Source of the DNA: an uncultured virus (IMG/VR IMGVR_UViG_3300027747_004168)
Lineage: Duplodnaviria > Heunggongvirae > Uroviricota > Caudoviricetes
Virus record (IMG/VR): IMGVR_UViG_3300027747_004168
Reading direction: 5' to 3' (one strand)
DNA length: 22,977 nt
Positions 1 through 22,673 of the stretch are shown here, piece after piece. Position 1 is the stretch's first letter; every line of letters starts with the position of its first letter. The translations under genes and the position numbers were made by a program. The notes under the pieces were generated by a model. That model searched no databases and was not told the origin of the DNA. It saw nothing but the letters and a program-made list of their open reading frames with translations.

Positions 1-922
1 TCAGCGGCTCGGCGTCCGACAGGCCGAAGTAGTCCCCGACGATCTCGTTCTTGGAGTTCACGGTGAACAGGCCCATGTACCTGTAGTCGCAGCACATCCT
101 CTTGAACATTTTGGGCGTCTTGAGGCAGTCGAGGTATATCTGGTCCGGCTCGGGGTTCTGCCTCGTCGGGTAGCAGGTGCCGTATATGATTTTCTTCACG
201 CCGATCTTGAGCAGGCTTTTGAAGAACTCCCTCTGCTTCTCCGGGTCGTACACTTCCTGCTGTATTGCCGCCTGGACGGTCATCCTCTCGCCCATCCCCA
301 GCTTGACCAGCCTCGCCAGGTTGCAGAATGTCCTTCTGTGCGGGTTGACCGACTTGTCGGCGGACTTCCGCTGCCAGTTGTGCTGGTCTTCGAGTCCGTC
401 GAGGCTCACGTCGACGTAGGACATTGACAGCAGTCTTACGGAGTCTGCGTCGAGGGGCAGGGCGAGGTTCGTGGTCAGCGAGCAGTTCACGTTCTCCTGG
501 CCGAACTCGCCGATTAGGCCTTCGAGGATTTCTAGGCACTCGCGGGCCTTGATGAGGCACTCCCCGCCCAGGAATGAGACGTTGAACTTCCTCGTCCCGT
601 ATCTCTCCTTGTGGGCTCGGCAAAGCCTGACGAGGTCTGCTGGGTCTATCTTGCACTCGTCTCTGGCCTTGAGGAGTCCCAGCACGCAACAGTGGTTGCA
701 CCTCAGGTTGCATTCCCACGTCGGCAGTATCCTGAGCGACAGTTCTTCTTTCGGCGGGCTGAACAGCCTCCTCTCGAGCGATTCCCCCTCCTGCCCCGCG
801 AGGAAGAGTCCGTCCTCGAGCTCGTCGAGCGGCGCGTCCTCTGGCAGGCTCTGCTGCGTCATGGTGTTGTAGAGGACGCCCTCCGTCCTGACAACGTACC
901 TAGATGTCAAATTATGCAGCAT
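1..922 (-). CDS. Radical SAM protein, anaerobic sulfatase maturase / SPASM-type peptide maturase-like; 3' end runs off the window
   Basis: Hand translation, as it is absent from the ORF track (no stop in the window): MLHNLTSRYVVRTEG...PTWECNLRCNHCCVLG...VSFLGGE...LTTN...VDVSLDG...HNWQR. The CxxxCxxC motif plus GGE, TTN and SLDG motifs are typical of this rSAM subgroup. The start overlaps the end of the upstream gene. Confidence 0.9.
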   Translation of the reverse strand, partial: MLHNLTSRYVVRTEGVLYNTMTQQSLPEDAPLDELEDGLFLAGQEGESLERRLFSPPKEELSLRILPTWECNLRCNHCCVLGLLKARDECKIDPADLVRLCRAHKERYGTRKFNVSFLGGECLIKARECLEILEGLIGEFGQENVNCSLTTNLALPLDADSVRLLSMSYVDVSLDGLEDQHNWQRKSADKSVNPHRRTFCNLARLVKLGMGERMTVQAAIQQEVYDPEKQREFFKSLLKIGVKKIIYGTCYPTRQNPEPDQIYLDCLKTPKMFKRMCCDYRYMGLFTVNSKNEIVGDYFGLSDAEPL

Positions 923-1995
923 ATGTTGTCCACCACCCTGCTTTTGTCGAAGCCCTTCCAGAACGTCGGATACTTGTATCTCCCAACAAGATAAGAGCGA
1001 TAGGGCATGTATTTCGCCTCGCGGCCTTTGAGGAATGAATTTATCTCGGCCCTGTCGTCCTCGGGCAGTCTGTTCTTCTCCCCGTGGTCGAACATGTCGT
1101 GGTATATGTGGAACACCCCGGGTTCCGCCTCTATGAACTGCATGTTCAGCATTCGGGATTTGATTTTGGTTATGAGCTCATGCCCCGAGAGGTATTCGCC
1201 GTCGATCATGGGCCTTTGCTTGTAGTGGGGTACGAACCTGTATTCGCATCTGGTCCTCCCGCACCCGCACGGCTCGAATCCTCGGACCTCCATGATGTCC
1301 GACTTCTTGAACGATGCCTTGGTCAGGTTCAGCAGGTTTGTGACTCTCCCGCCCCTCTCGGACCATATCGGCACTATGTGTCGTCCGCCGTGCTCGCACT
1401 CGTGGAAGTTGACGCCGGTCTTCCAGTCCACCATGCGGTCCAGAGCGTTGATCCTGCGCTTGTCGTAGAAGGCGTCCCAGCAGGACGAGAATATGCGGGC
1501 TTTGCCGGCCGCGAAGTACTCGGCCAGCGTGTCGTGGCATCCCATCATCATGACGACGTTGGGGAACGCCTCCAGCACCGCATCCCCCCTTTTCTCGAGC
1601 CTTCCGAGTAGGTACTCGGCGCCCTTTTCGCACGTGAGGTCCGCGAAGATCGAGTCGCCCAGTTCGGCGAACCGTTCGACCTGGTAGAAGTCGAATCTGC
1701 AGTTCAGCATGACGCGTCTCTTGCGGGACCGCCTCTGTCTCTCCTCGAATCCCCTCACCACATGGGTGCAGTTGGGGCCGAACGCGTATTCGGACTCCTC
1801 TTGGCCGGACCCGTTTGATTTCATCTGGCGCGCCTCCACGGGCTTGCGGAAGCCGCGGTGGACCTCCTCCATTTCGGCCATGTCTGACTCGTAGTTCGAG
1901 AAGTCGTATTCGAATGCGTTGTCCAGGAACTCCTCTGCGGACTCCCTGTCCAGCCTGTCTAGGTATCGGCGGTAGGACTCTGTCATCGCCGACAT
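907..1995 (-). CDS. Divergent phenylacetate-CoA ligase (PaaK/CapK)-like adenylate-forming protein
   Basis: C-terminal ~360 aa of the 907..2787 ORF, starting at MSAMTES (1995, GGAGG upstream) or MTES (1986, ATGA overlap). Contains a degenerate P-loop-like KSNGSG, FHECEHG, VTNLLN and PCGCGRT, reminiscent of the PaaK-like family. Confidence 0.55.
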   Translation of the reverse strand: MSAMTESYRRYLDRLDRESAEEFLDNAFEYDFSNYESDMAEMEEVHRGFRKPVEARQMKSNGSGQEESEYAFGPNCTHVVRGFEERQRRSRKRRVMLNCRFDFYQVERFAELGDSIFADLTCEKGAEYLLGRLEKRGDAVLEAFPNVVMMMGCHDTLAEYFAAGKARIFSSCWDAFYDKRRINALDRMVDWKTGVNFHECEHGGRHIVPIWSERGGRVTNLLNLTKASFKKSDIMEVRGFEPCGCGRTRCEYRFVPHYKQRPMIDGEYLSGHELITKIKSRMLNMQFIEAEPGVFHIYHDMFDHGEKNRLPEDDRAEINSFLKGREAKYMPYRSYLVGRYKYPTFWKGFDKSRVVDNICCII

Positions 1996-2630
1996 AGCTT
2001 CGCGTCCTCCTGGAAGACCTCCTCGAATCCGCCGAGTCTGCGGATGGAGAGCCTGTCGTACTCCGTTCTGCCTATTGCGAAGGTGTTCTTCGTCCCGAAG
2101 GCCCTTTCGATTTCCTCGTCGAGCCGGTCGTAAAGCATTATGTTTGTCTTCTCCGCGCCCAATCGGGCTATTATGCGGTGCTGGTGGAAGAAGTTGAAGA
2201 GCTTGAGCTTGTAGTCCGAGCCTTCGAACTCCACGACCTTTTCGTCTTCGGATGCGTCGGGTTCGTACAGCAGGTCGCCGTGCTTCACCTCGCACGGGAG
2301 AAGGGCCTTCTCGGCCCTCACGAATTCGGTGAATCTCATGTCCTTTATCCTCGTGAGCTCTTCGTACCTGCATCGGGCCGGGATGTCTTTCATTCTCTTG
2401 GTCGAAGACAGGGTGTTCTGTGCGGACAGCCAGATCGACGCGGCCCGCTCGATGGGGGTCCGCAGGACTATTTGCCTGACGAAGTCTCCGTACTCCTCCG
2501 GGACGGAGACCCTGTGTATCGGCAGCAGCTCTTTGCATTCGAATTTGGAGAGCAGGAGCGCGGAGACGGATCTGCTCGCGGTCCTCGGATTCCTGACGAA
2601 CACCCATCGCATCTTTTCGCAGACTATCAT
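1983..2630 (-). CDS. Sulfotransferase family 2-like protein
   Basis: N-terminal WVFVRNPRTASRSV matches the 5'-PSB loop pattern (FxHxPKTAGxS). LRTPIERAASIW matches the 3'-PB pattern (RxPxxRxxS). Coupled to the next gene by an overlap. Confidence 0.7.
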   Translation of the reverse strand: MIVCEKMRWVFVRNPRTASRSVSALLLSKFECKELLPIHRVSVPEEYGDFVRQIVLRTPIERAASIWLSAQNTLSSTKRMKDIPARCRYEELTRIKDMRFTEFVRAEKALLPCEVKHGDLLYEPDASEDEKVVEFEGSDYKLKLFNFFHQHRIIARLGAEKTNIMLYDRLDEEIERAFGTKNTFAIGRTEYDRLSIRRLGGFEEVFQEDAKLCRR

Positions 2631-2660
2631 GAGAGCATTTCAGAATAGTGGGCTTACAAC

Positions 2661-2700
2661 AAAAAAGGCCGGACGATGCTGTTTCCAACATCGTCCGGCC
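2661..2700 (-). terminator. Rho-independent terminator ending the non-coding transcription unit
   Basis: Minus strand GGCCGGACGATGTTG-GAAA-CAGCATCGTCCGGCC-TTTTTT: a 15-bp stem with one G-U pair, a GAAA loop and a U-tract. Confidence 0.9.
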
Positions 2701-3587
2701 TGGTCGGGCGGAAGAAGGTTTTGAGTCCGCTCGCGCTTTCGCGGAGGAACGAACTTCCCAAATTGGTCCGTCGCATGAAGGCAGCATCCCGGGTACTCTT
2801 CCACCGTTGGGCGATTTGCGCCCACCGCACGGTGACCCGTCTGCGACAGCCGTGGTCTGCTCCGGTCGCTCGCTGACGCCATGATCCTGCGGGTTGGGCC
2901 CTTGGCTCCGCCTGTTACCGGCGGTCCGCGTGGGGGCTTGTCCCTAGGGCGGTGCGTCGACTTGCGCCGGGCATTGGCCTCGGCACTCCTGCGTGTTTAT
3001 CGCGTTCAGGCTCCGCGTCGTTTCTGGGGAGTTTTTTGGTTGGACTCGACTGTCCCCTCCCTGGCTCAACACCGCTATGATCCGTCGCCACGGATGCTCC
3101 GCTCTGGCGGAGGGCTTTTGCCGGGGGGACTGCAACGTCCCCCGACTTACCCCGCGATGCAGCGATGACCGCCTCTTCGACTCGCACGGGACCCGGGGCT
3201 TTCGACCCGGGATGCGTTCCCGAACTTGTCGGCGGCGAACTTCGGACGTTTGTCCCGAGCTGGCATTTCTGACAACTAGGTTTATATCGCCCGACCATCC
3301 TCGCTCCGATGCCAGCCGTGGGTTTCCGAACAGGCTCCTCCCCGATCAGTGAAAGCGGGGTTTTGCCTTCTTCGTACGCTGCTGTGCCGATGTTGCCATC
3401 GGTTGCGCCGCGTCCTCGCCCTTTCTTGGCGGATTGGGCTTTTGTGGCCGCGGATTCCGTTTTGGGGAATCCGTCGGCTTGCCCACGGCTTCTGGTTTCT
3501 CGCCGCGACCCTCACGGGCCACGGCAAGGACTTGTGTTTGTCGAATTGTCAAAGATCGGCTCGGCTTCGCGTTACCGCGTCGTCGAT
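2701..3587 (-). ncRNA. Candidate large (~0.85-0.9 kb) highly structured non-coding RNA, in the GOLLD/ROOL size class; family unassigned
   Basis: No protein-like ORF in an otherwise gene-dense window. Bounded by a promoter and a terminator. Many GNRA-closed hairpins read on the minus strand. Long-range complementarities at 3288-3297/2701-2710, 3482-3489/3315-3322 and 3309-3316/3259-3266. Confidence 0.8.
3546..3579 (-). promoter_or_regulatory. rrn-leader-like boxB hairpin plus boxA antitermination element
   Basis: Minus strand CGCG-GTAA-CGCG hairpin (3579-3568) followed by GATCTTTGACAA (3557-3546), similar to rrn boxA (TGCTCTTTAACA / GATCTTTGAAAA types). Confidence 0.6.
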
Positions 3588-3593
3588 GGGCGC

Positions 3594-3621
3594 AGTATAT
3601 CGCATCCGTTCGTGTGTGCAA
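3594..3621 (-). promoter_or_regulatory. Sigma70-type promoter driving the candidate ncRNA
   Basis: TTGCAC-N16-TATACT on the minus strand, with an A-tract upstream. Confidence 0.7.
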
Positions 3622-3664
3622 GGCCCTTGTCCAATTTTTTTCTGGGAGCCTGTTTTTCAGGCGT

Positions 3665-4042
3665 CTAGGCCTGTTGCCTCTCGGGGGCCTCGGACTCCAT
3701 TTCTCTCTGGACTTCCTTGGCGATCCGCTCGCACTCCTCCTCCTCCTTGGCTTCGACCTCTACTTTGTTCCTCTTGAGGTTCCTCGCCAGTTCGGAGACG
3801 CCGAGAAGGCCGAGGAGAAGTGCGACCTGGAATCCCGGGAGCGGGACGAAGCCCCCCGCGAGGGTCCACGCGATGATGCGGTCTGCGGTCTTCTGGCCGT
3901 ATCTCTCGGCGAGGCGCTTCTTCTGTGCCTCTAGGCTTTCCGCGGCCTTCCTGACGATTGGGTTCTTATCGACCGTCAGCCAGTCGGCGACGGATTCCGA
4001 CTGGACTCTCCTGTCCATCCATTCTCTGAAGGTTCGGCCCAT
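3665..4042 (-). CDS. Hypothetical protein with N-terminal F-x-x-W tag and one hydrophobic segment
   Basis: 125 aa, MGRTFREWMDRR...; hydrophobic IIAWTLAGGFVPLPGFQVALLLGLLGV; TAAATA 5 nt upstream of the ATG. Confidence 0.8.
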   Translation of the reverse strand: MGRTFREWMDRRVQSESVADWLTVDKNPIVRKAAESLEAQKKRLAERYGQKTADRIIAWTLAGGFVPLPGFQVALLLGLLGVSELARNLKRNKVEVEAKEEEECERIAKEVQREMESEAPERQQA

Positions 4043-4047
4043 GAGAG

Positions 4048-4073
4048 TATTTATGGGTTTGGCGCACTAAATA
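4048..4073. promoter_or_regulatory. Divergent pair of TAAATA late-promoter-like motifs
   Basis: TAAATA-N5-ATG on both strands (4053-4048 minus, 4068-4073 plus) within a 36-bp intergenic gap. Confidence 0.65.
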
Positions 4074-4078
4074 CCGGC

Positions 4079-4387
4079 ATGAAGAGTTTTTCGCAGTGGA
4101 TGGAGGAGGCTTACCCCTCGGAACGCGGTCAGGAGTGGATCGATGCCGAAAGGAGGAGGCTTTTGGCCTGGCCCAGGGACAGGCTGATCGGCTGGCTGAT
4201 GTGGAACGACCGCAACGGGGTTTTCTCGGACGAGGACGCGGAACGAGAGGGGATGGATCCGATCACGGTGGAGGACGCCGTGGAGCTCGTCATGCAGCAC
4301 GTGGAGGAGAACCTCGAGACCCCAGAGGAGATGATGCGGTCTGCGCGTGGCCCGGTGGCCGGCGGTCAGTATTGGAATCGGCCCTAG
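4079..4387 (+). CDS. Hypothetical acidic protein with N-terminal tag
   Basis: 102 aa, MKSFSQWMEEAY...; protein-like composition; fills the gap between neighbouring genes. Confidence 0.8.
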   Translation: MKSFSQWMEEAYPSERGQEWIDAERRRLLAWPRDRLIGWLMWNDRNGVFSDEDAEREGMDPITVEDAVELVMQHVEENLETPEEMMRSARGPVAGGQYWNRP

Positions 4388-4398
4388 GCCCGTTCCGT

Positions 4399-5385
4399 TC
4401 AGGGAAGCAGGCTCTGTTTGATCATCGCCTCGGCCACCGCCTTTACCATGGGCGGCGGCACGGAGTTGCCGATCTGCCTTATCGCCGTGGAGTCTCTCGC
4501 GGGCATCTTGTGGCTTTGCGGGAACCCTTGGACGAGCAGGCATTCGGCTGGAGCGAGTCTCCGTACGCCATTGTCGTCGTACACCCAGAACCGTCCCGCT
4601 GACTCCTGCGATGGGATCGTCGGGTGTGTCCCGTCCGCGTGGTATATCCTGTTTGGCTGCTTGTGGAATCTGGAGAGGTGCTCCGTCCCCTCCCTCGTCC
4701 CCTTCTTTCGCGCGGGCTTGTTCCTGTACCCGACGAACAGCAGGCCCGATTTCTGTTGCCTCCACTTGTCGCGGGGCAGCAGCGTGTACTCCGATGGTTC
4801 CAGGACGGCCGCTGTTGTGGCGGATAGAATGGGTCTGATGGTGGGCGTGGGGCCGCATCTGTCCACCAGTCCGAAGTCAAACTTCTCCCTCAGGGAGGCG
4901 ACCATGATCGTCCTCTCCCTGTTCTGTGGCACCCCGAAGTCCTTGGCGTTGAGCACCTGCCAAGAGAAATGGTAGCCTTCTTCCTCGAGCATCGACCGTA
5001 TGGTGTCCAGCGTCCTTCCGCCGTCGTGCTTGGACAGGTGCTTGACGTTCTCTAGCAGCAGGGCCTGCGGCCTCTTGCTCTTGGCGATCCTGAGGATGTC
5101 GAAGAATAGAGTCCCCCTCGGGTCGTCGAAGCCCTTCTTCCTCCCGGCTATGCTGAAGCTCTGGCAGGGGAAGCCGCCGGCGAGCAGCTGGTGGTCGGGG
5201 ATTTGTTTCTCGTCGACCTTCGTTATGTCGCCGTCCGGGTAGTCGCCGAAGTTGCTTCTGTATGTCTCCCGGCAGTCGGGGTCGATCTCGGACGAGTAGA
5301 CGCACCTTCCGCCGCAGGCGTCCAGGGCGGTGCGGAAGCCCCCCATCCCCGCGAACAGGTCTATGTAGGAGAACTCGGCGTTCAT
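4399..5385 (-). CDS. C5-cytosine DNA methyltransferase 1
   Basis: MNAEFSYIDLFAGMGG (motif I), AGGFPCQSFS (IV), LLENV (VI), PQNRER (VIII), QIGNSV (X). The ATG at 5385 overlaps the upstream stop (ATGA). Confidence 0.95.
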   Translation of the reverse strand: MNAEFSYIDLFAGMGGFRTALDACGGRCVYSSEIDPDCRETYRSNFGDYPDGDITKVDEKQIPDHQLLAGGFPCQSFSIAGRKKGFDDPRGTLFFDILRIAKSKRPQALLLENVKHLSKHDGGRTLDTIRSMLEEEGYHFSWQVLNAKDFGVPQNRERTIMVASLREKFDFGLVDRCGPTPTIRPILSATTAAVLEPSEYTLLPRDKWRQQKSGLLFVGYRNKPARKKGTREGTEHLSRFHKQPNRIYHADGTHPTIPSQESAGRFWVYDDNGVRRLAPAECLLVQGFPQSHKMPARDSTAIRQIGNSVPPPMVKAVAEAMIKQSLLP

Positions 5386-6386
5386 CGGGGCATTCCGTCG
5401 AGGATGTGGGCGACTATGTCGACTGTCCACCCGTTGCCGAGCATCCTGTACCTCTGGGTGTCTGACACGGGGGACGTGTAGCCGTCGGGCACCGTCTGGA
5501 GCCTTTCGCACTCGAGGGGCGTCACGTAGCGAATGGCGAACTTGCCGGCAGGGAGGTCGCCCTCTCTCGTTATTCGGTGTTCCTTCCCGTCCTTCTCGGC
5601 GACGAGGAATCCGTCCTTGAGCGCTATTCTGATCGGGCCGGACTCCGGGTCCTTGCCTCCGTATACGGGGAACTTTGCCGGGTCCAGGCCCGGGTCCGCG
5701 TCGGCCACGCCGAAGAAGCGCTGCGAGCTGTACTTCTTGTGGTGGTTGGCCTCGAGCATCTGCATCTTCTCGTGGTCTTTGTGGATGGTGATAGGCCTGC
5801 CCTTCCTTATGCTCTCCGCGGCGAGCCACTGCATGGCCTTGTGCGTGTAGTAGTGCTTGTGCAACGCCGCCCCGCGCTCCCTGACGGACCCCCACGAGAC
5901 CTTCTTGTCGCCCGGCTGGGCGAGGCCCGGTATGTTCGTCCAGTACAGCCTCTTCCTGTTCTGTGCGGAGATAAGGTTTGAGTTGATGAGTGCGGGCTCG
6001 ACTCCTAGCGTCCTGCTGATGACTGCCTCGTACTCCTTCTTCATGACCACGTTCTCGAGCAGGAAGAACCGGGACTTGCACTCCTCCAGGATCCTGGCGT
6101 ACTCGAAGAAGAGCTTGCTCTCCGGGTGCTCGAAGTTCAGCTGGTTGCCCGCGAAGCTGAACCCTTGGCAGGGGCTTCCTCCGATGAGGATGTCGGGTCT
6201 GGGTATGTCGCGGGCGAAGACCTTGGTGACGTCGCCCAGGTGCTTTGTGTTTGGGAAGTTCTTCTTGGTGACGGCGATGGCGTCCTCGTCCACCTCGCTC
6301 GCCATGTAGAGGTCGGGTTTGATGTTGAGTTTTTCGAGCGCGAGCTGCCCGCAGCTCATCCCGTCGAAGAGGCTGAGTACGATCAC
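5382..6386 (-). CDS. C5-cytosine DNA methyltransferase 2 (phage Dcm-like)
   Basis: LSLFDGMSCG, GGSPCQGFS, LLENV, AQNRKR, ERLQT, LGNGW motifs; GTG start. Confidence 0.95.
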   Translation of the reverse strand: MIVLSLFDGMSCGQLALEKLNIKPDLYMASEVDEDAIAVTKKNFPNTKHLGDVTKVFARDIPRPDILIGGSPCQGFSFAGNQLNFEHPESKLFFEYARILEECKSRFFLLENVVMKKEYEAVISRTLGVEPALINSNLISAQNRKRLYWTNIPGLAQPGDKKVSWGSVRERGAALHKHYYTHKAMQWLAAESIRKGRPITIHKDHEKMQMLEANHHKKYSSQRFFGVADADPGLDPAKFPVYGGKDPESGPIRIALKDGFLVAEKDGKEHRITREGDLPAGKFAIRYVTPLECERLQTVPDGYTSPVSDTQRYRMLGNGWTVDIVAHILDGMPR

Positions 6387-6870: not shown

Positions 6871-7680
6871 CTACACTGCTCGTCCCATGCCGGCCTTGGC
6901 GGCGGCCCGTCTTTTCCCGGCCTCCACTGCCTGCTGGTAGAGGTACGGATTGACGAGTATCATTTTGCGTCTGATCTCGTCCCTCTCCTCTTTGGTCTTG
7001 GCCGCCTTGTACATGTCCACGAGCCTCTTCCATTCCTCTGGCTGTGGCTTGGGGCGGTCGGGATCGACGCGCCGCATCGGAGCCTTATCTTGTTTTTCCT
7101 TCCTCTCTAGTTCCTTGAGGAAGGGCTTTGGGTCTGCGGGCTTCTGCGTTCGGACCGCCTTGGGCTTGGTCGTCCTCTCATCCGAACCCTTCTTCTCCTT
7201 CGTGTCCGCATTCTTTCCGTCCTTCCACGAGTCAAGTCCGACGAGGTCTTGGAAGGCGGTTCGGTCTTTGCTGCCGGGGGCGTAAAGCCCGGTTATCCCC
7301 AGCATGGGTTCGCTTACCGCTTGGGCCCCGCGCAGAATCGGGGAGACGCCCGTGGCGACACCCACTCCTTGGGCGATTCCTCTGGCGACCTTGCCTATTC
7401 CTGACCCTATGTTGTCAGAGGCTCGCCTGAAGGTCTTCTCGGCCTCTTCGTGGCCGCCACCTGCTCTCTGGGCCGCGGAAAGGACCCCCTGTCCGATCCC
7501 GTAGGTTCCTTGAAGAACCCCCGAGGAGACATTCCCTATGGCCCGTCCTGTCTGGGACAGGGCGTTGCCAGTCGCGCCGGCGGCGAATTTGAGAGCCGAA
7601 CCCAGCCACTCGTCGATGTGTTCGATGCCCTCGTCGAAGAGGGCCGCCTCTTCGTTCTCTATGAACTCCCTGAATTCCAT
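6871..7680 (-). CDS. Hypothetical Gly/Ala-rich protein with N-terminal tag (candidate virion internal protein)
   Basis: 269 aa, MEFREFIENEE...IDEWLGSALKFAAGATGNALSQTG; TACATA-N4-ATG upstream. Confidence 0.85.
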   Translation of the reverse strand: MEFREFIENEEAALFDEGIEHIDEWLGSALKFAAGATGNALSQTGRAIGNVSSGVLQGTYGIGQGVLSAAQRAGGGHEEAEKTFRRASDNIGSGIGKVARGIAQGVGVATGVSPILRGAQAVSEPMLGITGLYAPGSKDRTAFQDLVGLDSWKDGKNADTKEKKGSDERTTKPKAVRTQKPADPKPFLKELERKEKQDKAPMRRVDPDRPKPQPEEWKRLVDMYKAAKTKEERDEIRRKMILVNPYLYQQAVEAGKRRAAAKAGMGRAV

Positions 7681-7898: not shown

Positions 7899-8276
7899 TC
7901 ACCCCCAGATTCGGCGTGCCAAACCTAGGGCGAAAATCACCTTGCCGAGGGCGTTTCTCCTGCAGGATGCCGTCCTTTCGGCGTAGAAGTTCCGGAACTG
8001 CCCGTTGGGCATCTCGCAGGTCACGATCGTTTCTGTCCTGTGGAAGTCAGAGTCCCACTCCCTGTACCTGCTTTGGGCGTCAAGCCGTGCGATGTCCTGC
8101 TTGGTTAATTTCTTCACGGATACCACCCTCGCCAAATGCCTTGTGGTATCGCCGGATACGGGCTGCTGGTATTCGAAGTTGTACACCTGGCCGATCTTGG
8201 CCTCCGACAGGTTGTTGACGATCATGGTTCTGTTCCTTTCGTGTTTCTGGTAGGCGGGATTGTATTTCAGCGCCAT
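7899..8276 (-). CDS. Hypothetical beta-rich protein, possibly WYL/SH3-like
   Basis: C-terminal part of ORF 7899..8753, from MALKYNP (8276) or MIVNN. Pattern VYNFEY...TTRHLARV...GQFRNFYAER. The fold guess is weak. Confidence 0.6.
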   Translation of the reverse strand: MALKYNPAYQKHERNRTMIVNNLSEAKIGQVYNFEYQQPVSGDTTRHLARVVSVKKLTKQDIARLDAQSRYREWDSDFHRTETIVTCEMPNGQFRNFYAERTASCRRNALGKVIFALGLARRIWG

Positions 8277-9238
8277 GGCCTCGTCAACGCCGCCTTCATG
8301 TTTTCCGCGATCCTCCTGACAAGGGGTACGACAACTGCGTTGCCCGCCTGCTTGTAGATGTGGATGTCGGAGGTCTTGATGAAGAAGTTGTCCGGGAAGC
8401 CCTGAAGCCTGAGGCATTCTCCGGGCGTCAACTTCCTGATTCCGAAGTCGTCCCTGATGACAGGCACGTTGTGTCCGCCGCCACCCATGTTTGCGGTGAG
8501 TGTCGGGCATACGCCGTTCTTGTTCTCTCTCATGTACACCCTTCTCATCTGGTAGACGCTTGAGTTGACCATGGCCTTGTCCATCATTTCGTAGCAGCGA
8601 CTTTCGGTGGTGTAGTAGTACTTGTCGTCCTGTCTCTCGCCTCTGTTGAATATTTTCTCCAATGTGTTCGTCAGCGGTATCCCCGAGGGGAAGTCGAAGC
8701 TTGCCAGGACGCTCTCGTCCAGGAAGCCGACGATGAACATTCGCTCCCTGCACTGCGGCACGTTTCCGTGTGTGTGTCCCCCGAGGACCTCATGTTTGAT
8801 GTTGTAGCCGCAGTCGCGGAGGTGCTCGAGGATCACCTCGAAGTCCTTGCCGTGGTTGGTCGACTGGATGTTCTTGACGTTCTCCAGGAGTATGGCGTCG
8901 GGTCTCTTCTCCTTGAGGACTCGCACGATGTCGAAGAACAGGGTTCCCCTGACGTCTGCTAGACCGCCCCTCCTTCCTGCGAGCGAGTAGGGCTGGCAGG
9001 GGAAGCCGCCTGCGAACACGTCGAAGTCGGGGATGTCCTTCGGGTCAACCTGCCTTATGTCTCCCTCGTGCAGGTTGACCTCGGGATGGTTGGGTCTGTA
9101 GTTCTCGCACGCCTTCTTGTCGAACTCGTTCGCGTAGACGACATCGAAGCCGGCCTGCTTGAATCCGTAGCATATGCCGCCGATTCCTGCGAAGAAGGAC
9201 GCGACCCTGATCTTGGGCTCTATTGGGCGAGGGTTCAA
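8267..9238 (-). CDS. C5-cytosine DNA methyltransferase 3
   Basis: ASFFAGIGG, GGFPCQPYS, LLENV, PQCRER, QAGNAV; target recognition domain with CPTLTANMGGGGHNVP. The TTG start overlaps the upstream TGA. Confidence 0.95.
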   Translation of the reverse strand: MNPRPIEPKIRVASFFAGIGGICYGFKQAGFDVVYANEFDKKACENYRPNHPEVNLHEGDIRQVDPKDIPDFDVFAGGFPCQPYSLAGRRGGLADVRGTLFFDIVRVLKEKRPDAILLENVKNIQSTNHGKDFEVILEHLRDCGYNIKHEVLGGHTHGNVPQCRERMFIVGFLDESVLASFDFPSGIPLTNTLEKIFNRGERQDDKYYYTTESRCYEMMDKAMVNSSVYQMRRVYMRENKNGVCPTLTANMGGGGHNVPVIRDDFGIRKLTPGECLRLQGFPDNFFIKTSDIHIYKQAGNAVVVPLVRRIAENMKAALTRPWR

Positions 9239-10209
9239 GCGACCACCCCCATCAGGCTATTCGCCAGGTGGAAGGCGAGCCTCACGGGCACGGCGTTGCC
9301 TATCTGCTTGTACTTCTGGGAGACGGACCCGCAGAACTCGTAGGCGTCCGAGAACGTCTGTATCCGCGCGTACTCCCTGACGGTCAGCGGCCTCGTCTCT
9401 AGAGGGTGGCACCTGTCCGTCTGTTTCTGGGACGGGCTTGTGAGGAGCGTGAGCGAGGGCTGGTCCATGCTTAGCCTCCTTGCGAAACCCCTCATCCCGC
9501 CTCCGGATTTGAGGGCGTTCCCCATGTACTCTCTCTTCACGCCCTCTGGCAGGTCCACCCAGCATCCGCCCTCCGGGACCAGCTCCATGACCTTTCTCTT
9601 CTTCTCTGAGTACTGGATTCCCTCGCTGGGCGGCACGTCTTTCAGAGCGTCACGCAGCAACATTTTTTTGGACGTCGGCGCAGGGAATTCGTACTCTGTC
9701 TCTATGTCCTCCCGGACGCCGACGATTATCATCCGCTCGCGTCGCTGTGGCACCTCGTAGTCCGCGGCGTTCATCACCTTGTGGAGAACCCTGTACTTTC
9801 CTTCGTTGTGGAGGAGCTCGAGTACGGAACGCAGCGTCTCGCCCTTGTTGTGCGTTGCCAGGCCTCTTACATTCTCGACGAGGAAGGCCTTGGGGAGGCA
9901 CTCCATGAGGAGTCGGCTGAAGTCCAGTATCAGCCTGCCGCGGGGGTCTTCGAATCCCCTCCTCTCGCCGGCCTGGCTGAACGCCTGGCAGGGGACGCCC
10001 CCGATGAGAAGGTCGGGCCGCAGGCCTTCGAGAGACAGCAGCTCCATTCCGCACTCCCTGACCATGTCGCCGTGGGAGGGGTGGTTCCTGCGCAGGGTGG
10101 CGCAGCAGGATTTGTCTATCTCGTTTATCAAAAGGGGTTTAAAGCCGGCCTCGATGAACCCGGTACCAAGCCCCCCGCACCCCGCACAAACCTCCACGAA
10201 AGTCGGCAT
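9235..10209 (-). CDS. C5-cytosine DNA methyltransferase 4
   Basis: EVCAGCGG, GGVPCQAFS, LVENV, PQRRER, QIGNAV; target recognition domain with ARRLSMDQPSLTLLTSPSQKQTDRCHP. Confidence 0.95.
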   Translation of the reverse strand: MPTFVEVCAGCGGLGTGFIEAGFKPLLINEIDKSCCATLRRNHPSHGDMVRECGMELLSLEGLRPDLLIGGVPCQAFSQAGERRGFEDPRGRLILDFSRLLMECLPKAFLVENVRGLATHNKGETLRSVLELLHNEGKYRVLHKVMNAADYEVPQRRERMIIVGVREDIETEYEFPAPTSKKMLLRDALKDVPPSEGIQYSEKKRKVMELVPEGGCWVDLPEGVKREYMGNALKSGGGMRGFARRLSMDQPSLTLLTSPSQKQTDRCHPLETRPLTVREYARIQTFSDAYEFCGSVSQKYKQIGNAVPVRLAFHLANSLMGVVA

Positions 10210-10493: not shown

Positions 10494-11153
10494 ATGATCA
10501 CTTTCGGCCAGTTTCTCGAGCACAAGCACAACGACCTCGTCGTCAAGGAATGCACCCACCTCATGGTGGAGATGGAGATCGACCCCTATGTGTACATCTA
10601 CGAGTCGCTGAAGGAGATCGACCCCGTCCTCGCCGAGGGCTGGTGGGACGGCGTGAAGCAGTTCGCCGGCAACGCCTGGAATGCCGCCAAGCAGGTCGGC
10701 AAGGGCGTATGGGACGGAGGCGGGCTGAAGCACGGCCTCAGGCAGGCCGCGGACACGCTCGCCGGGCCGGTCTCCAAGTTCGACGCGGCGGAACGGGCGC
10801 TTGGGGATCTGGTGAAACTCCTGAACAACGACGAAAGGTTCCAGGACAAGTTTAAATCCAGCACTGGACAGGGTTCAGTCGGCCAGTATCTTGCAGGCGT
10901 TCTTGAGTCCTTGAAAAAGGACAAGGAGGCGGTTCCGCAGATGATGAACGCGCAGGTCAAGCAGGATTACGGCACGAGAAAGGATGTTGACGATCAGAAG
11001 TCGGCCGCGGCCGCAGCCAAGGCAGGCGGGGCCGCACAGCCCGCCCCAACAATGGACATGTCGAAGTTGGGCGGAGCGAACCAAGCCGCTCCCCAAACTA
11101 ACCAGCCGGCGCAGAAGAGGAGCTGGGAAACAAGAATGTCCGGCCAAGGCTGA
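10494..11153 (+). CDS. Hypothetical protein with N-terminal tag (candidate virion internal protein)
   Basis: 219 aa, MITFGQFLEHK...LAEGWWDGVKQFAGNAWNAAKQVG; AAGGAG SD and TATATA (10462-10467) upstream; Ala/Gln-rich tail. Confidence 0.85.
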   Translation: MITFGQFLEHKHNDLVVKECTHLMVEMEIDPYVYIYESLKEIDPVLAEGWWDGVKQFAGNAWNAAKQVGKGVWDGGGLKHGLRQAADTLAGPVSKFDAAERALGDLVKLLNNDERFQDKFKSSTGQGSVGQYLAGVLESLKKDKEAVPQMMNAQVKQDYGTRKDVDDQKSAAAAAKAGGAAQPAPTMDMSKLGGANQAAPQTNQPAQKRSWETRMSGQG

Positions 11154-11231
11154 TCGACACGGATTTGCTTGCGGGGCATGCGTTCGAGGCAATTGCAAAG
11201 TAAGACAAGTCCGCACTTTGGGAGTGACTTT

Positions 11232-11450
11232 TCAGATTTTTTTGGCTCTTTTCTTGAGCCACGCTGAGAACTTCCGATTCTTTGCCCTGTTGGGCAGGCC
11301 TTTGTGTTTTGTCTTGGCGAAGTCTTTGGCCGCCTTCTTAGTCATGTTGTCGGCCATCTTCTCTATTTCGGGACTGGCGCAGTTTCCCGTCTTCTGGCAG
11401 GCGTGAACCATTCCGAATAGCCTCTGCTGGGATTTTGACCTGGACGGCAT
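11232..11450 (-). CDS. Small basic protein, DUF3008-like
   Basis: MPSRSKSQQRLFGMVHA...MTKKAAKDFAKTKHKGLP resembles the DUF3008 pattern; AAGGAG SD. Confidence 0.75.
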   Translation of the reverse strand: MPSRSKSQQRLFGMVHACQKTGNCASPEIEKMADNMTKKAAKDFAKTKHKGLPNRAKNRKFSAWLKKRAKKI

Positions 11451-11584: not shown

Positions 11585-14128
11585 TCATTCCTTGTATTTG
11601 TCGTATACATCCTTCAGTGGCGGGCCGCTCTTTGAGTGGAAGGCCTTTGATCTGACTGCCTCTTTCACCCTTTCCTCTCCGACTGCGTCTATGACCCCTT
11701 GTTTGTCGGGTGCGAAGGCGAAGATGGAGAGGAAGTCAAAGTTTTTGAGTTTTATGTTCTTGAGCGTGAATTCAATCAGCTTCTGCAGGTCGTCGGAATC
11801 CAGCTTCAGGTCGCCAAACAAATACGACAAATAGTCGTCTGCCTTTGACACTATTTTTTTTGCTGCGGACAGTTTGTCCGGTGCGTGTTTTATGAGTTTG
11901 AGCACATAAGTCCAATTTTCACCTCGATCCCATTTGAATTCTTTTTTGTCGTTTGCAATTTTGTCCGCGACCATTGTCTTCTGTTCTTCGTCCAAGCGGT
12001 CGCTGTCCATGATTTGGCTGATTTCATGGGGTCTCAGCTCGTTTGCGTCTATTTTTTCAAGGGCCTTCTTTTTGTCCTTTGCGGATATCAGGAGGGAGAC
12101 CATGTTTTTGTGGGACAAATTTGCGTGTATGTCGGCGAATTCGTCGGAAGCTCCCGGCTCCGACAGTCTCAGAACCATGTCGGCATCCTGTTCGGGGATT
12201 TTTTCCAATATCTTCTCGCCCAATATGTCTAGAATCCTCCTCTTTTGGGATGCCATGAGGAACAGGGATGCTATGGGGTTGTGGCCGTGTCTGGTCGTTG
12301 TCCAGTTCAGCAATTCCTCCTTGTTGTCCTCTGCGATTCGCTCCGCGAGCTTCTGTCTCTTTTCGCCCCTTAATTTGTTGAAGAAGTCTCCGCTGAACTG
12401 TCCGAAATAAAATTTCCCCACATCTCCTGGGTATATTCCGGAAAAGACGCCCTTCTTCTTAAGAAGAATATCCAGGGTCTTTTCTGGGTCGCTTGACTTG
12501 GTCACTAGATCGAAGGTCAGGGATCCGAGTGGTTTATCAAGGTGGCTGTTGATCACGCCCAGTATGACATTTTCTTTGTCTTTTGTTGTCGCCAGGATTC
12601 TGGCGAGTGAGCTGGCGTCCAAATTCGCGTGATTCTTGAAGATTTCATCTGATGCGGCCGGGTTGTGTGTGGAGTTCCATATTGAATGGAGGGTTTCCTT
12701 GTCTAGGACGCTAACTCTGTTGCCGAGCATCTTGATGATTTTTTCGGGACTCGGCGCGTGCCTTATGAGTGCATTGATGTCCTCGGGGCTGAGGTCTTTT
12801 TTGCTGGAGATGATCATTTCCGCGATCTTTTGATCTTCGTTCCTGAACTCTGGTCTTATATGGTAATTGGGCTTTATTTCCTCGTACTCGCCTTCCCATT
12901 CCTCGTCCTCGTCCTCGTGCTCTTCACCGTACTCGTCTACCCAGGCCCTCACTTTCTTTTTCATCCCGTCTAGCAAATGTATTATATTTTCCGTTGATAT
13001 TGAACTAAGGTCTACTATGCCTGGTCTGGTGAGCATTATGCTTTTCTCGCTGTTCGTCAGTTTCAGTGGCGTGTCGCTCCTTCCCGCCATGTTCTTTATT
13101 TTTTCTAGCGTTACTTCCACATAGCGTCTTTCTAGTTTTGTGCCCTTGATCAATTCGTACTGTTTATCGGTGAGTCCGACTCCGAATCCGATGTACTTGT
13201 TCTTGAGGTCCTCGGGCAGACTGGCGAACTGTTTGTCCGTCAGCCCACGGTCAAGCCTCACATATATGTCCATGTAGCGATTCTTTCGCTCGTACGGGAG
13301 TTTGGCGAACTTTTCGTCGCTGATGCCGCCGGAGAATTCCTTGTGATCCTGGCGTTCTTCCTGGGACAGGGCCACATTCTTGAATACCTCCTCAAGACCC
13401 GAGAGACTATTGTCTATTGCGGTTATCTCCCGCCACGACATGGGGTTGTCTCCGTCGTTGTTCGCGCTTGTTACGACATACTGTTTTCTTTCCGCGTCCT
13501 TGGGGTCGGCTCCTTTTATTACTTGGATCACGAAGAAGTGATACGGGTCCTTGAATCTGCCTTCGAAGCTGGTCTTGACCAGGTTCCAAAGTTTGAATTC
13601 CTCTTGTGTCTTTTTCTTGTTCTTTACGAAGTAGAAAGAGGGCTCGTTTTGTTTGAACCTGTAGGCGTGGTAGAGATTGCTCGCGTCGTTGCGGGCCACG
13701 CACCAGCCGTACGGTATGTTGCCCTTGTATTTGATGCACGCCCGGGGGCTGTCTGCGTGGTAGATGACAATTGATTCATTTTCGAATACGGGTTTGGCAT
13801 CCACCTCTACATCCTTGAAGTTGACTTTTCCGCTGAAGTCGACTTGTCCCTTGACATGATCCACGACGGCCTCTAGCTCTTCAAATGTCGGATATGCGTC
13901 TATGTTGTTTCTCTTGTTTGTCGGGACGCTTACGCTGGGCAGGGGGTCGTATATTTGCTTGTATTTTTTTGTTACTATGGTCTTGAACTCGTCTATGTAT
14001 TTTCTTACGGCCTCTCTGTTGGCATGTGGGTTTGCCTTGACGAACTTTTCAAGGGCGGTCTTGTAGTCTTCGTTAAGAGTGACGAGTTCTTTGTTTTCAA
14101 ACCATATTCTGAAGTTCATTTTATTCAT
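11585..14128 (-). CDS. Large (~847 aa) hypothetical protein with N-terminal tag, acidic patch and helical repeats
   Basis: Probable start MNKMNFRIWFENKE (14128, or 14119). Features ACIKY...WCVAR...SFYFV, the acidic DEYGEEHEDEDEEWEGEYEE, and repeated units (HANL..., LIRHAPSP, LIKHAPDK, FAFAPDK). Confidence 0.85.
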   Translation of the reverse strand: MNKMNFRIWFENKELVTLNEDYKTALEKFVKANPHANREAVRKYIDEFKTIVTKKYKQIYDPLPSVSVPTNKRNNIDAYPTFEELEAVVDHVKGQVDFSGKVNFKDVEVDAKPVFENESIVIYHADSPRACIKYKGNIPYGWCVARNDASNLYHAYRFKQNEPSFYFVKNKKKTQEEFKLWNLVKTSFEGRFKDPYHFFVIQVIKGADPKDAERKQYVVTSANNDGDNPMSWREITAIDNSLSGLEEVFKNVALSQEERQDHKEFSGGISDEKFAKLPYERKNRYMDIYVRLDRGLTDKQFASLPEDLKNKYIGFGVGLTDKQYELIKGTKLERRYVEVTLEKIKNMAGRSDTPLKLTNSEKSIMLTRPGIVDLSSISTENIIHLLDGMKKKVRAWVDEYGEEHEDEDEEWEGEYEEIKPNYHIRPEFRNEDQKIAEMIISSKKDLSPEDINALIRHAPSPEKIIKMLGNRVSVLDKETLHSIWNSTHNPAASDEIFKNHANLDASSLARILATTKDKENVILGVINSHLDKPLGSLTFDLVTKSSDPEKTLDILLKKKGVFSGIYPGDVGKFYFGQFSGDFFNKLRGEKRQKLAERIAEDNKEELLNWTTTRHGHNPIASLFLMASQKRRILDILGEKILEKIPEQDADMVLRLSEPGASDEFADIHANLSHKNMVSLLISAKDKKKALEKIDANELRPHEISQIMDSDRLDEEQKTMVADKIANDKKEFKWDRGENWTYVLKLIKHAPDKLSAAKKIVSKADDYLSYLFGDLKLDSDDLQKLIEFTLKNIKLKNFDFLSIFAFAPDKQGVIDAVGEERVKEAVRSKAFHSKSGPPLKDVYDKYKE

Positions 14129-14256
14129 GGCTGTTTTTTCGTGGGACCATCTTGAACTCAACGGAAAATCTGAAGGTGGTTCCCGTGGCCTCCGACGCCA
14201 AGCATTTCTATTTAGAGGCATTTTTTTCTTTTTGGGGTGTTTTGAATAGATATTGC

Positions 14257-17808: not shown

Positions 17809-18532
17809 CCGCGAGGGCGTTGATCCCGTACTTCTCTATGTCGTTTTTCCTGTTCGGCAGGACGACAGACTGGTGGACGAACACCCAGCCCGACCGTATC
17901 TTGTCCAATCCCGACTTTAGGAGCGTCGCGCTGCTGGTGGGCTTCGAGTCGTCTCCCTTCGGTATGCTTCCGATCTTCCAGTCTTCTTGTACGAGGTTGT
18001 TGCAGAAGCAGGCGGACAGTATCTTGGGCATTCCCTTGAAATACCCCCAGCCCACTACGAGCACGGTCGTGGTGAGCCTATGATGGGACGAGGCTTTGAT
18101 GCTCATGAACTTGAAGTCGGACATCTTCGATGCCTTGGCGTCGAAGCCCCCTCCCAGATAGGTCTTTTCGGTGGGCTTCTCTATGTAGCTGGCGGTTCCC
18201 TCGAACAGCGGTATGAAGTCGGGGCTTGCCGACTCGTGGGGGTTCTTGACCAGACTTGTCTTTGAAAGTGCGCAGTAGGCCGCGGCTAGGCATTCCCCGA
18301 ATGCGCCGCTCTTGTTCTTCTCCAGGACCCCGTCCCAGAGCACCACCATTCCCTCGTCTGCCCAAGCTTTGAACCGTTTGATCTGTTTCTCGAAGTCCTT
18401 GTTGGCCTTGGCTGCGGCCACCACCATGAGTCTCGGGTCGATGCGCTGCGGCTTGCCTCCGATGTCGGGGTGGTAGCGCAGGGCGTCGGGTGACAGAGTC
18501 TTGTTTGTTAAGTAGTCTTTTGGCTCGAACAT
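17792..18532 (-). CDS. Putative PD-(D/E)xK restriction-endonuclease-like protein
   Basis: SGAFGE helix, then HESASPDF and GGFDAKAS: the order and spacing of a PD...(D/E)xK active site. Confidence 0.55.
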   Translation of the reverse strand: MFEPKDYLTNKTLSPDALRYHPDIGGKPQRIDPRLMVVAAAKANKDFEKQIKRFKAWADEGMVVLWDGVLEKNKSGAFGECLAAAYCALSKTSLVKNPHESASPDFIPLFEGTASYIEKPTEKTYLGGGFDAKASKMSDFKFMSIKASSHHRLTTTVLVVGWGYFKGMPKILSACFCNNLVQEDWKIGSIPKGDDSKPTSSATLLKSGLDKIRSGWVFVHQSVVLPNRKNDIEKYGINALAVRATA

Positions 18533-18602
18533 CCCTTGTCAGAGCCTCGCCGGAGGGCGCCACGAGCGGCACCGGCGGGCCTTTCGTTTTGGAACTTGCA
18601 GC

Positions 18603-18660
18603 ATGATACTAGACTTTTATTGAGAAGTCAATTGACGTGATCGGCACATTCCTATATGAT
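18603..18660. promoter_or_regulatory. Back-to-back divergent sigma70 promoters
   Basis: Plus strand TTGACG(18632)-N17-TATGAT(18660); minus strand TTGACT(18631)-N17-TATCAT(18603). The -35 boxes abut in the palindrome GTCAATTGAC. Confidence 0.7.
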
Positions 18661-18751
18661 CGACAGGTATAGATTTTTGGACATTAGATTTTTCGTGGTT
18701 TTGGCCGTTGCCGTGCTGGTGTTCGTTGCTTTATTGGAGATGATGGGATGA
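18656..18751 (+). CDS. Possible single-TM micropeptide
   Basis: MIDRYRFLDIRFFVVLAVAVLVFVALLEMMG; its stop overlaps the next ATG (ATGA). The start may instead be TTG 18677, because the ATG lies inside the -10 box. Confidence 0.4.
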   Translation: MIDRYRFLDIRFFVVLAVAVLVFVALLEMMG

Positions 18752-20763: not shown

Positions 20764-21403
20764 CCCTGCTGGCCCTCGCCGCCGCGTACCTGTCGTGTAG
20801 GCCTCTCCGCCACTCGTAGGCGTCCTTGGCCATTTCTATGACTTGCTCGTCCGTCATGGACTTTATCCTGGCCGCGATGGGCTGGGACGCGGACAGGTTC
20901 GTGGAGTCCCAGATCGCCCCCCTGAGCATGTTGGCGAGCGCCCTTTCTCTGGTGATCGGCGCATAGGAGTAGAAGTTCTGCACTGGCCTGCCGTCCTTGT
21001 CTCGCCCCTGGTGGACGATCCACCCTTTCTTTCTGGCCTCGGCGGGGTCTACCTCCACGGTCTCGCTGTCGTCCAAGTGCAGTTCTCCGGAGATGTATCT
21101 GGCGTATATCCTGCCCATCTCCTCTTGGACGCTCCAGTCCTTGTCTAGGTCGCTTTCTGGCTCGCCCCTGTCTTCCTCCGCGCTTCCGTCGTCCATGTCG
21201 TCGAGGCTTGAGTCCATCCTGTCCTCTAGTTCCTCGAGTTCGGCGTCGAGCCTCTCCGCCGTCCTGTGGTCGCCCCTTTTGTAGGCGTCGTAGACCATCT
21301 TCTCCAGCCGCTGTCTCCTTGCGAGGTCGGCGGGGTTGAGGAGGGAGGAGTACAGGCCTTTTAGACCTTCCGACGCCTCAAGAAACTGGCGGAATGTCGT
21401 CAT
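20747..21403 (-). CDS. Hypothetical acidic protein with N-terminal tag
   Basis: 218 aa, MTTFRQFLEASE...; GGAGG SD; overlaps the end of the ArdC-like gene. Confidence 0.8.
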   Translation of the reverse strand: MTTFRQFLEASEGLKGLYSSLLNPADLARRQRLEKMVYDAYKRGDHRTAERLDAELEELEDRMDSSLDDMDDGSAEEDRGEPESDLDKDWSVQEEMGRIYARYISGELHLDDSETVEVDPAEARKKGWIVHQGRDKDGRPVQNFYSYAPITRERALANMLRGAIWDSTNLSASQPIAARIKSMTDEQVIEMAKDAYEWRRGLHDRYAAARASRASGNP

Positions 21404-22673
21404 TTTCCTCCGTGTCTGCTTCCGTCGTCTCTGTCTTGCTTTTTATGCCGTTGATGATCTCCATGGCGGCTTTCTGGATGTTTCTTCTTCTGGCCTTGAT
21501 GTCCTCTCCCGTGGCACGCCAGAGAGCAAGGTAGTTGCTTGTGTCCTTGGTCTCGAATCCGAAGTGCTTGAGGACGATGTAGGCTGTAGTCTCCGCGTCG
21601 ATCTCCTTCTGCTGTCTGGAGCTCATCTTCCCCTCCTTGTCCTTCCAGTGGAGGATTTCGTGGGCCACCTCGTGTACGTAGGTGCTGAACATGTTTATGC
21701 CCTTGAAGGTGCTGTTTATGGCGATCTTGCCGCCGGCGGAGTACCCGCCCTTCTCGCTGTCCATCTCCTCTGTGTCCACCTTTATGCCCTGTTCCTTGAC
21801 CCAATCTTCCAAGGCTGAGATGTATCCCTTTATCTCCTCCACCTCTTCGTTGCTGTCCTTGCTCCAGTCTTTCCTGCTGACTGGCTCGAAGCTCTTGGGG
21901 TGTCCCGGGATCGGGGCGGTGGCGGACACGTCGTACACCGACTTGGGGATGAAGTACATCCTCTCCCTGACCTCTTTCTCGCCGGTGCTGGGGTTGTCTA
22001 TCTCCTTCCTGGACTTGGCCGGGGCCAGGATCGATATTCCCGCCTTCCAGTCCCTGACCGTCCTTCCGAACTTCTGCTCCCACTGCTTGGCCCCGGCCAC
22101 GTGCTGCGCCTGCCCGCGGGTCTGGATCCAGATCAGCATCTGGTTGTGAAAGCTGTAGTTGTAGAACTTCGACGAGAAGTCGAGGAAGTTCCTGATGAAG
22201 GCCTGCTTCGCCGCCTCGTCCGTGCCGCTGGCGACCTGATCTATCATCCGCTCTATGCTGTCTATGAGCGTCTGGGCCTTCCTGTCCGTGGTCTTGACCT
22301 TCTCCAGTTCGGCGTGCATCTTCTCGAGCGTCTCGTCGGACTTCGACGGCTGCGCCTGGGGCCGGGGCTCGGGTTCGGCGGTCGCCTGCGGGGGGGCGTC
22401 GTAGCCTCCGAGGTCTACGCCCATGCCCTGCAGCTCCGACCGAACCTCCGGCGTCAGCTTGGCGCTGAACATGCTGTAGGTGCCGTTCCCTCCGAAGTAC
22501 CGGAAGCCCAGCCTCTTGAGTTCCTCCTTTTTGGAGAACATGAGGTCTCGCTCCTCCTTGTCCGTTCCATAGAGAACGAGGAAGGTGTTGTCGGGGTTCT
22601 TGGGGCTGGTCTCCTTGCGGGACCTGATGTACTTCTGGGCGCTTTCCAGGAACAGCCAAAGTGTGAAATTCAT
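21378..22673 (-). CDS. ArdC-like protein: ssDNA-binding ArdC-N domain plus zincin metallopeptidase domain, with N-terminal extension
   Basis: YSFHNQMLIWIQ...VAGAKQWEQKFGRTV...ISILAP...VYDVS (ArdC-N); HEVAHEILH...EIDAETTAYIV...SNYLALW (metallopeptidase); TATATA-N5-ATG. Confidence 0.85.
   Translation of the reverse strand: MNFTLWLFLESAQKYIRSRKETSPKNPDNTFLVLYGTDKEERDLMFSKKEELKRLGFRYFGGNGTYSMFSAKLTPEVRSELQGMGVDLGGYDAPPQATAEPEPRPQAQPSKSDETLEKMHAELEKVKTTDRKAQTLIDSIERMIDQVASGTDEAAKQAFIRNFLDFSSKFYNYSFHNQMLIWIQTRGQAQHVAGAKQWEQKFGRTVRDWKAGISILAPAKSRKEIDNPSTGEKEVRERMYFIPKSVYDVSATAPIPGHPKSFEPVSRKDWSKDSNEEVEEIKGYISALEDWVKEQGIKVDTEEMDSEKGGYSAGGKIAINSTFKGINMFSTYVHEVAHEILHWKDKEGKMSSRQQKEIDAETTAYIVLKHFGFETKDTSNYLALWRATGEDIKARRRNIQKAAMEIINGIKSKTETTEADTEENDDIPPVS

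Follow-up and report, generated by a model that had tools for sequence, protein, structure and literature searches.

A candidate stand-alone gene for a large, structured non-coding RNA in a mobile element from fresh water

The DNA considered here is a stretch of 22,977 nucleotides (nt) from an uncultured virus assigned to the Caudoviricetes (IMG/VR record IMGVR_UViG_3300027747_004168), referred to at its full length as the window, and the subject is a region near its beginning, 2660-3534, which is non-coding and ends on the minus strand in an intrinsic terminator. An initial annotation of 2701-3490, made from the letters alone, had described long-range pairings, an apparent pseudoknot tying the RNA 3' end to an internal loop and a possible conformational switch. 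The ends of contigs from RNA libraries and the terminator together point to a minus-strand RNA of about 875 nt running from 3534 to 2660, with a G+C content of 64%, which is probably a real and new large structured RNA. The gene as proposed is defined by the following features:

2660..3534, minus strand: proposed RNA gene, about 875 nt, 5' end near 3534 and 3' end in the U run 2665-2660
2660..2701, minus strand: intrinsic terminator, 16-bp stem 2701-2686/2681-2666, GAAA loop, U run 2665-2660
3594..3621, minus strand: possible promoter, read by eye (TTGCAC, 16 nt, TATACT)

The non-coding status of the region is evident from its codon-position G+C contrast, which amounts to 0.02-0.22 in 14 scan windows starting at 2551-3526 versus mostly 0.3-0.6 in the flanking genes. 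The local open reading frames (ORFs) matched no Pfam or PHROG family in family searches, the largest of them (127 aa) had no relative among 5.8 billion protein clusters, and exact look-up in a collection of 15 billion proteins retrieved none of 10. Searches with Rfam returned no match at the gathering score over the whole window and, at E values up to 10 on 2400-3900, four weak unrelated matches only, none of them to GOLLD, ROOL or OLE; the best of these is the terminator, which resembles the 3' end of a small RNA, and was set aside. The terminator itself, found by a terminator scan and also as an inverted repeat, combines a stem in which 10 of 16 pairs are G-C with a 4-nt loop and a subsequent TTTTTT, and thus has the GC-rich hairpin followed by a U run of a Rho-independent terminator; its pair probability is 0.99.

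Transcription is addressed by public sequencing runs, 20 of which contain the stretch, 11 of these being RNA libraries. At least half of the sampled words occur in nine runs; five of these are RNA libraries, which come from three studies and carry the label freshwater or lake water. Three RNA runs (X5, X6 and X9) and one DNA run (X2) were compared as contigs over 1200-5200, with the small-share runs X15-X20 left out. The RNA contigs, 97-100% identical to the stretch, cover 2695-3534 (X6), 2766-3502 (X5) and 2707-2991, 2995-3187 and 3307-3529 (X9), with lower ends that fall in or beside the terminator stem, and the contigs of the DNA run (1200-3086 and 3144-4583) cross both borders of the proposed gene. 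RNA contigs that end at coinciding places where the DNA continues are a weak hint of transcript ends. Just beyond 3534 the X6 contig carries 23 foreign letters, which we take to be Illumina sequencing adapter, so that library fragments would have ended at this position. On the flanks 1200-2694 and 3535-5200 no RNA contig was found, a missing cover that is not counted as evidence. As contigs give no strand, the assignment to the minus strand is based on the terminator, the GNRA loops and the asymmetry of the folding z-scores between the strands.

The fold of 2660-3600 has a z-score of -8.54 on the minus and -4.21 on the plus strand (20 shuffles), and the RNA without its terminator one of -4.85 on the minus and -3.05 on the plus strand. 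Coding controls gave z-scores of -0.91, -0.02 and -3.07; the most negative control, 12000-12832 on the minus strand, has an unusually low G+C content of 0.49. Taken alone, the 5' domain 3534-3310 reaches -6.09 on the minus strand, a stability matched by none of 200 shuffles, and -4.02 on the plus strand. GNRA tetraloops cap six of the 16 hairpin loops predicted on the minus strand (GUGA, GCAA and four GAAA), against an expectation of 0.36 +/- 0.64 in 80 shuffles, none of which exceeds 3; no GNRA cap is predicted on the plus strand, and the counts in six coding controls are 0, 0, 2, 0, 0 and 1. Among the features intrinsic to the sequence, these predicted caps are the clearest sign of a folded minus-strand RNA.

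The architecture of the RNA, with helix probabilities taken from the folding ensemble of the 875-nt transcript, is predicted to comprise the following elements, listed from the 5' end together with the segments to which the initial annotation had drawn attention:

3499..3528, minus strand: 5' hairpin H1, 13 bp, GNRA loop GUGA (3515-3512), probability 0.99, present also in the fold of the isolated 5' domain
3482..3490, minus strand: 5' arm of the long-range helix H2, 9 bp perfect with 3314-3322, probability 0.97
3327..3478, minus strand: four hairpin arms in the 5' domain, 3478-3447, 3439-3418, 3413-3376 (GCAA loop) and 3374-3327, probabilities 0.82-1.00
3314..3322, minus strand: 3' arm of H2, partner of 3482-3490, probability 0.97
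3294..3309, minus strand: partner of the 3' tail in the preferred register, interrupted helix of 4+3+4+3 bp, probabilities 0.65-0.77
3288..3297, minus strand: internal arm of the 3'-end pairing as initially annotated, perfect 10-bp complement of 2701-2710
3259..3266, minus strand: arm of the 8-bp helix needed for the pseudoknot, perfect complement of 3309-3316
3187..3222, minus strand: hairpin with CCCGGG/CCCGGG stem and GAAA loop, probability 0.99, which takes up 3205-3215 locally
2849..2984, minus strand: long irregular hairpin arm ending in 2924-2908, probabilities 0.69-1.00
2784..2794, minus strand: segment with two proposed partners, 3205-3215 (perfect) and 3148-3160 (interrupted), holding the palindrome CCCGGG
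2704..2719, minus strand: 3' tail arm, paired with 3294-3309 in the minimum-energy fold
2701..2710, minus strand: 3'-end arm as initially annotated, directly before the terminator stem

The broad outline of the initial annotation, a large, multi-domain, structured minus-strand RNA that ends at the terminator, is supported, and the complementarities on which it was built are all present: 2701-2710 and 3288-3297 match perfectly over 10 bp, 2784-2794 and 3205-3215 over 11 bp and 3259-3266 and 3309-3316 over 8 bp, 3148-3160 matches 2784-2794 as an interrupted 4+5 bp, and 2701-2710 abuts the terminator stem 2666-2701. Best sustained is the helix 3482-3489/3315-3322, which was thought to close a multi-hairpin 5' domain and does so in the ensemble as part of H2, where keeping one arm single costs 13.3 kcal/mol. 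Its supposed abutment on 3259-3266/3309-3316 stands as far as both complementarities exist, but the segments 3309-3316 and 3315-3322 share two bases and therefore both helices cannot form in full. Likewise, the tail of the RNA does pair back just 3' of H2, as proposed, and keeping 2702-2719 single costs 8.3 kcal/mol, but the contiguous 10-bp helix has a probability of only about 0.2 and the shifted register listed above is preferred. A pairing of the 3' end is hence plausible in the predicted ensemble, with an uncertain register. In the upstream direction, a perfect 10-bp complement also links the 5' domain to the preceding stretch (3329-3338/3645-3654), a link of relevance only to a transcript that begins upstream of 3654.

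The pseudoknot and the switch, on the other hand, find no support in the ensemble. The 8-bp helix that would have to cross the 10-bp helix has a probability of 0, with 3258-3262 pairing locally with 3273-3277 instead (probability 0.97), and a pseudoknot-aware check, a ProbKnot-style assembly of mutually best partners, contains no crossing helix among 49. The 11-bp pairing of 2784-2794 with 3205-3215, one of the two alternatives of the proposed switch, also has a probability of 0, because 3206-3211 sits in the GAAA-capped hairpin, and the core of the match is the self-complementary word CCCGGG, of which the RNA has three copies. Forced folds are less decisive: compared with -406.7 kcal/mol unconstrained, the RNA folds at -403.8 with the 10-bp helix, -402.3 with the 11-bp helix and -398.1 with the 8-bp helix, and at -391.4 if the 8-bp helix is forced with the knot arms left free, the duplex of these arms alone being worth -20.2 kcal/mol. 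As the respective costs of 2.9, 4.4 and 8.6 kcal/mol are within prediction error for a total of -406.7 kcal/mol, thermodynamics cannot settle the pseudoknot.

Chance was assessed with 1000 dinucleotide-preserving shuffles of 2660-3534, long-range meaning more than 100 nt apart. Two long-range perfect matches of at least 10 bp were observed versus a shuffle mean of 0.37, a number that 6.3% of the shuffles reach, and one of at least 11 bp versus a mean of 0.10, reached by 9.1%; over all ranges, three matches of at least 10 bp compare with a mean of 0.50 (1.2%), one of the three being the terminator. A single long-range match is thus unremarkable and the set at best marginally enriched over chance. 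By chance alone, an RNA of 875 nt and 64% G+C would contain a perfect long-range match of 10 bp about one time in three, and such matches therefore need comparative or probing support.

Variation among the strains is slight. The compared contigs differ at eight positions, none in 3188-3534, and most lie in one segment:

2995..3187, minus strand: segment with most strain differences, six of the eight variable positions (3001, 3033, 3047, 3062, 3073 and 3177)

Across 193 bases of this segment one RNA contig shows 5 differences, and one strain variant changes an A-U pair to G-U. None of the eight variable positions lies in a helix with a probability of at least 0.8, though such helices hold 35.5% of the positions (binomial 0.03).

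The RNA is embedded in a series of genes of the same orientation, every gene between 6386 and position 2 being on the minus strand. The neighbours and the genes that characterize the setting are:

1983..2630, minus strand: 215-aa gene, next downstream of the RNA
907..1995, minus strand: 362-aa Cys/His-rich protein without family, two genes downstream of the RNA and adjoining the radical SAM gene
2..922, minus strand: radical SAM protein (family search)
5382..6386, 8267..9238 and 9235..10209, minus strand: three C5 cytosine DNA methylases within 5 kb, no restriction enzyme recognised beside them
21378..22673, minus strand: ArdC-like anti-restriction/metallopeptidase protein (family search)

Methylases with no accompanying restriction enzyme are what phages and plasmids typically carry as anti-restriction cargo. 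For the ArdC-like protein, matches were found in 2304 plasmid and eight phage records, the best of those listed having 25-33% identity and none reaching 60%. An atlas look-up of the 362-aa protein gave nothing above 0.77, many other proteins of the window are without family, and NCBIfam adds nothing new. An 878-aa familyless protein (11585-14221, minus strand) is 51% identical over its N-terminal 378 residues to an uncultured 595-kb phage (L047, 20001-21125), a locus of 41% G+C with no other shared gene in the 41 kb around it and no match to the RNA. A protein encoded in the window is also recorded on a 146,977-nt contig, and the carrier is a large mobile element, either phage or plasmid; the 23-kb window holds no tRNA gene. 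Low codon-position G+C contrast occurs in three further places of 270-360 bases, 7261-7620, 11071-11340 and 18451-18750, which are possibly further non-coding pieces.

Relatives of the neighbouring genes were found in ENA/Logan assemblies only, at 70% identity to the 215-aa gene (P0004) and 52-80% to the 362-aa gene (P0007, P0008 and P0009), and relatives of the element therefore exist. For the RNA itself, blastn of 2655-3660 gave no match in phage and plasmid records, exact 20-mers none in viral contigs and a 22-mer none in genome contigs, and a 20-mer in metagenome contigs led to two loci (L003 and L004) that share just 21-23 nt and were dismissed as chance. Protein-guided scans of viral sequences with six neighbouring or nearby genes yielded two weak loci only (L001 and L002), neither with similarity to the RNA, and a methylase-guided genome scan had its best match at 53% identity, with scattered taxa and no host readable. 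BLAST of the RNA in 807 sampled genomes (5 + 401 + 401) returned matches of 20-57 nt with per-genome E values of 3e-4 to 1e-2, likewise judged chance, a negative that applies to the genomes searched and does not mean absence. The antisense ORF 3309-3668 found one match among 1.84 billion representatives, P0011, rejected as a chance match inflated by repetition. P0011 is a predicted 382-aa protein with six tandem copies of a 61-aa unit, and its weak similarity, about 28 bits per repeat, is to the antisense translation of 3474-3668. In the literature no description of this RNA was found, which, as papers are not searchable by sequence, is weak evidence that it is unpublished.

Considering these observations together, the reading that we favour, at a probability of roughly 0.6, is that the long-range segments belong to a stand-alone minus-strand gene. 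Its product would be a stable non-coding RNA, about 875 nt long and with a high degree of structure, that acts in trans, and freshwater bacteria would harbour the gene on a large phage or plasmid. The RNA would work as a folded molecule, as an RNA-only or RNA-protein scaffold comparable to GOLLD and ROOL, and would be neither message nor leader. Its 3' tail (2701-2719) would pair back to 3288-3309, in one register or the other, and thereby close the remaining two thirds of the molecule.

Several points weigh against this reading. The contigs give neither strand, exact ends nor level, a promoter consensus scan of both strands of 2300-4200 found no promoter-like site, and the promoter read by eye would start transcription near 3587, about 50 nt upstream of the contig ends; a weaker -10-like GACAAT, also read by eye, is at 3550-3545. 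The terminator ends 30 nt before the start codon of the next gene, which would fit a leader as well. The stability signal is concentrated in the 225-nt 5' domain closed by 3490-3482/3322-3314: the middle third has a weak excess (z -2.55 on the minus strand, 1 of 100 shuffles as stable), the 3' third, 2989-2702, is on its own not above shuffles (z -0.71, 42 of 200 as stable), and one of the coding controls is itself fairly stable. No homologue of the RNA was found by any route, hence no helix is backed by covariation, and its conservation is known within one population alone, at 97-100% identity. Finally, any function of the RNA, whether through a partner protein, a target or an assembly, is hypothetical.

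Among the alternatives, the one that survives best is the initial proposal of a true long-range pseudoknot, 2701-2710/3288-3297 formed within the loop of 3259-3266/3309-3316, along with a conformational switch at 2784-2794. The complementarities that it draws on all exist, long-range matches are about five times as frequent as the shuffle mean (2 versus 0.37), and a rough sum of the energies, -391.4 plus -20.2 kcal/mol before any knot penalty, comes near the -406.7 kcal/mol of the unconstrained fold. It is nevertheless unlikely, given ensemble probabilities of 0.2, 0 and 0 for the three helices and an assembly free of crossing helices, the overlap of 3309-3316 with H2 (0.97), the local hairpin that holds 3205-3215 (0.99) and shuffle p values of 0.06 and 0.09, with an 11-bp match that rests on a thrice-repeated palindrome. 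The strains vary at none of the segments concerned (0 of 8 sites), and thus lend the pseudoknot and the switch no comparative support.

The same perfect matches might instead be contacts between copies of the RNA, which would then form a homo-oligomer as GOLLD, ROOL and OLE do. Its size of 875 nt, its richness in GNRA loops and its setting in a mobile element resemble GOLLD and ROOL, the core of the 11-bp match is self-complementary, and pairings earlier called tertiary are reported as inter-chain bridges (PMC12286853). That there is no Rfam similarity, GOLLD, ROOL and OLE included, and no tRNA nearby, and that the palindromes are all placed in predicted stems, with none in loops where they could serve as kissing sites, makes such an assembly quite improbable. 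A still more far-reaching version is to be regarded as a long shot. The RNA, produced abundantly by an element of at least 147 kb from fresh water, would be the first example seen of an undescribed class of ornate, GNRA-rich RNAs of about 0.9 kb, and its 10- and 11-bp matches would be bridges between the copies of an RNA-only assembly or a lock of the 3' end that stabilizes the RNA.

A very long structured leader, an attenuator of the downstream 215-aa, 362-aa and radical SAM genes in which the terminator would act as a regulated stop and whose terminated product would be the RNA observed, has a similarly small chance of being correct. It would agree with the common strand of the RNA and both its neighbours and with the short distance from the terminator to the next start codon, and the two registers of the 3' tail beside the terminator could serve as a switch; but no anti-terminator alternative to the 16-bp stem is seen, the stem having a probability of 0.99, and Rfam gave no cis-regulatory match. 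Well-known riboswitch and attenuator leaders are moreover several times shorter than 875 nt. Least probable is that no functional RNA exists and the region is a decayed gene, a transcribed spacer or an element acting at the DNA level, for instance a single-strand promoter or an origin. The missing homologues and the 3' third without excess stability would favour this, as would the resemblance of the setting (three C5 methylases, an ArdC-like gene, one strand) to plasmid anti-defence islands, which carry folded single-strand promoters (PMC11541004). Against it stand the excess of GNRA loops, seen on one strand only, the z-score of -6.09 for the 5' domain, the variable sites, which avoid confident helices, and the lack of protein similarity in the frames tried; a DNA-level element is further made unlikely by the length of about 1 kb versus 50-350 bp, the absence of promoter hexamers (no promoter-like site) and the strand-specific GNRA loops.

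If the favoured reading of a stand-alone RNA gene is correct, the RNA would join a small group, as few large structured RNAs of bacteria and phages are known and their functions are open. The RNA-only multimers described for GOLLD, ROOL and OLE make each new large RNA a candidate for a new architecture (PMC12286853). Its place in a very large mobile element, next to anti-restriction genes, may point to a part in establishing or maintaining that element, and the RNA is short enough for in vitro transcription and probing.

Judged by Rfam models, the RNA is not a member of GOLLD, ROOL or OLE. It is distinguished from OLE by the lack of a match to the Rfam OLE model, from ROOL by the lack of an Rfam match and of a tRNA island nearby, and from GOLLD by the lack of a match to the Rfam model even at E values up to 10 and by a 23-kb window with no tRNA gene. 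It is also longer than ROOL. With the Frpo/ssi type of element it has in common a strong fold, the lack of coding and a setting of orphan methylase and anti-restriction genes that share one strand, and it differs by its size, about 1 kb compared with the 50-350 bp of the regions searched for Frpo (PMC11541004), as well as by the lack of a -35/-10 consensus, the terminator at its end, the bounded RNA and GNRA loops specific to the RNA strand. The likeness to ROOL consists in the latter being a large RNA of phages and prophages with a predicted fold rich in pseudoknots and no known protein partner (PMC12286853). GOLLD and ROOL are large phage RNAs that assemble through kissing loops, some of them self-complementary, and A-minor contacts, and GOLLD, ROOL and OLE alike form RNA-only multimers in which pairings once regarded as tertiary proved to be bridges between chains (PMC12286853). 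The RNA also resembles GOLLD, many members of which exceed 800 nt and which is found in phages and prophages, often near tRNA islands: at about 875 nt the RNA described here is likewise longer than 800 nt, is predicted to fold into many GC-rich helices with A-rich joints, is carried by a mobile element and is derived from lakes, all features described for GOLLD (PMC12286853).

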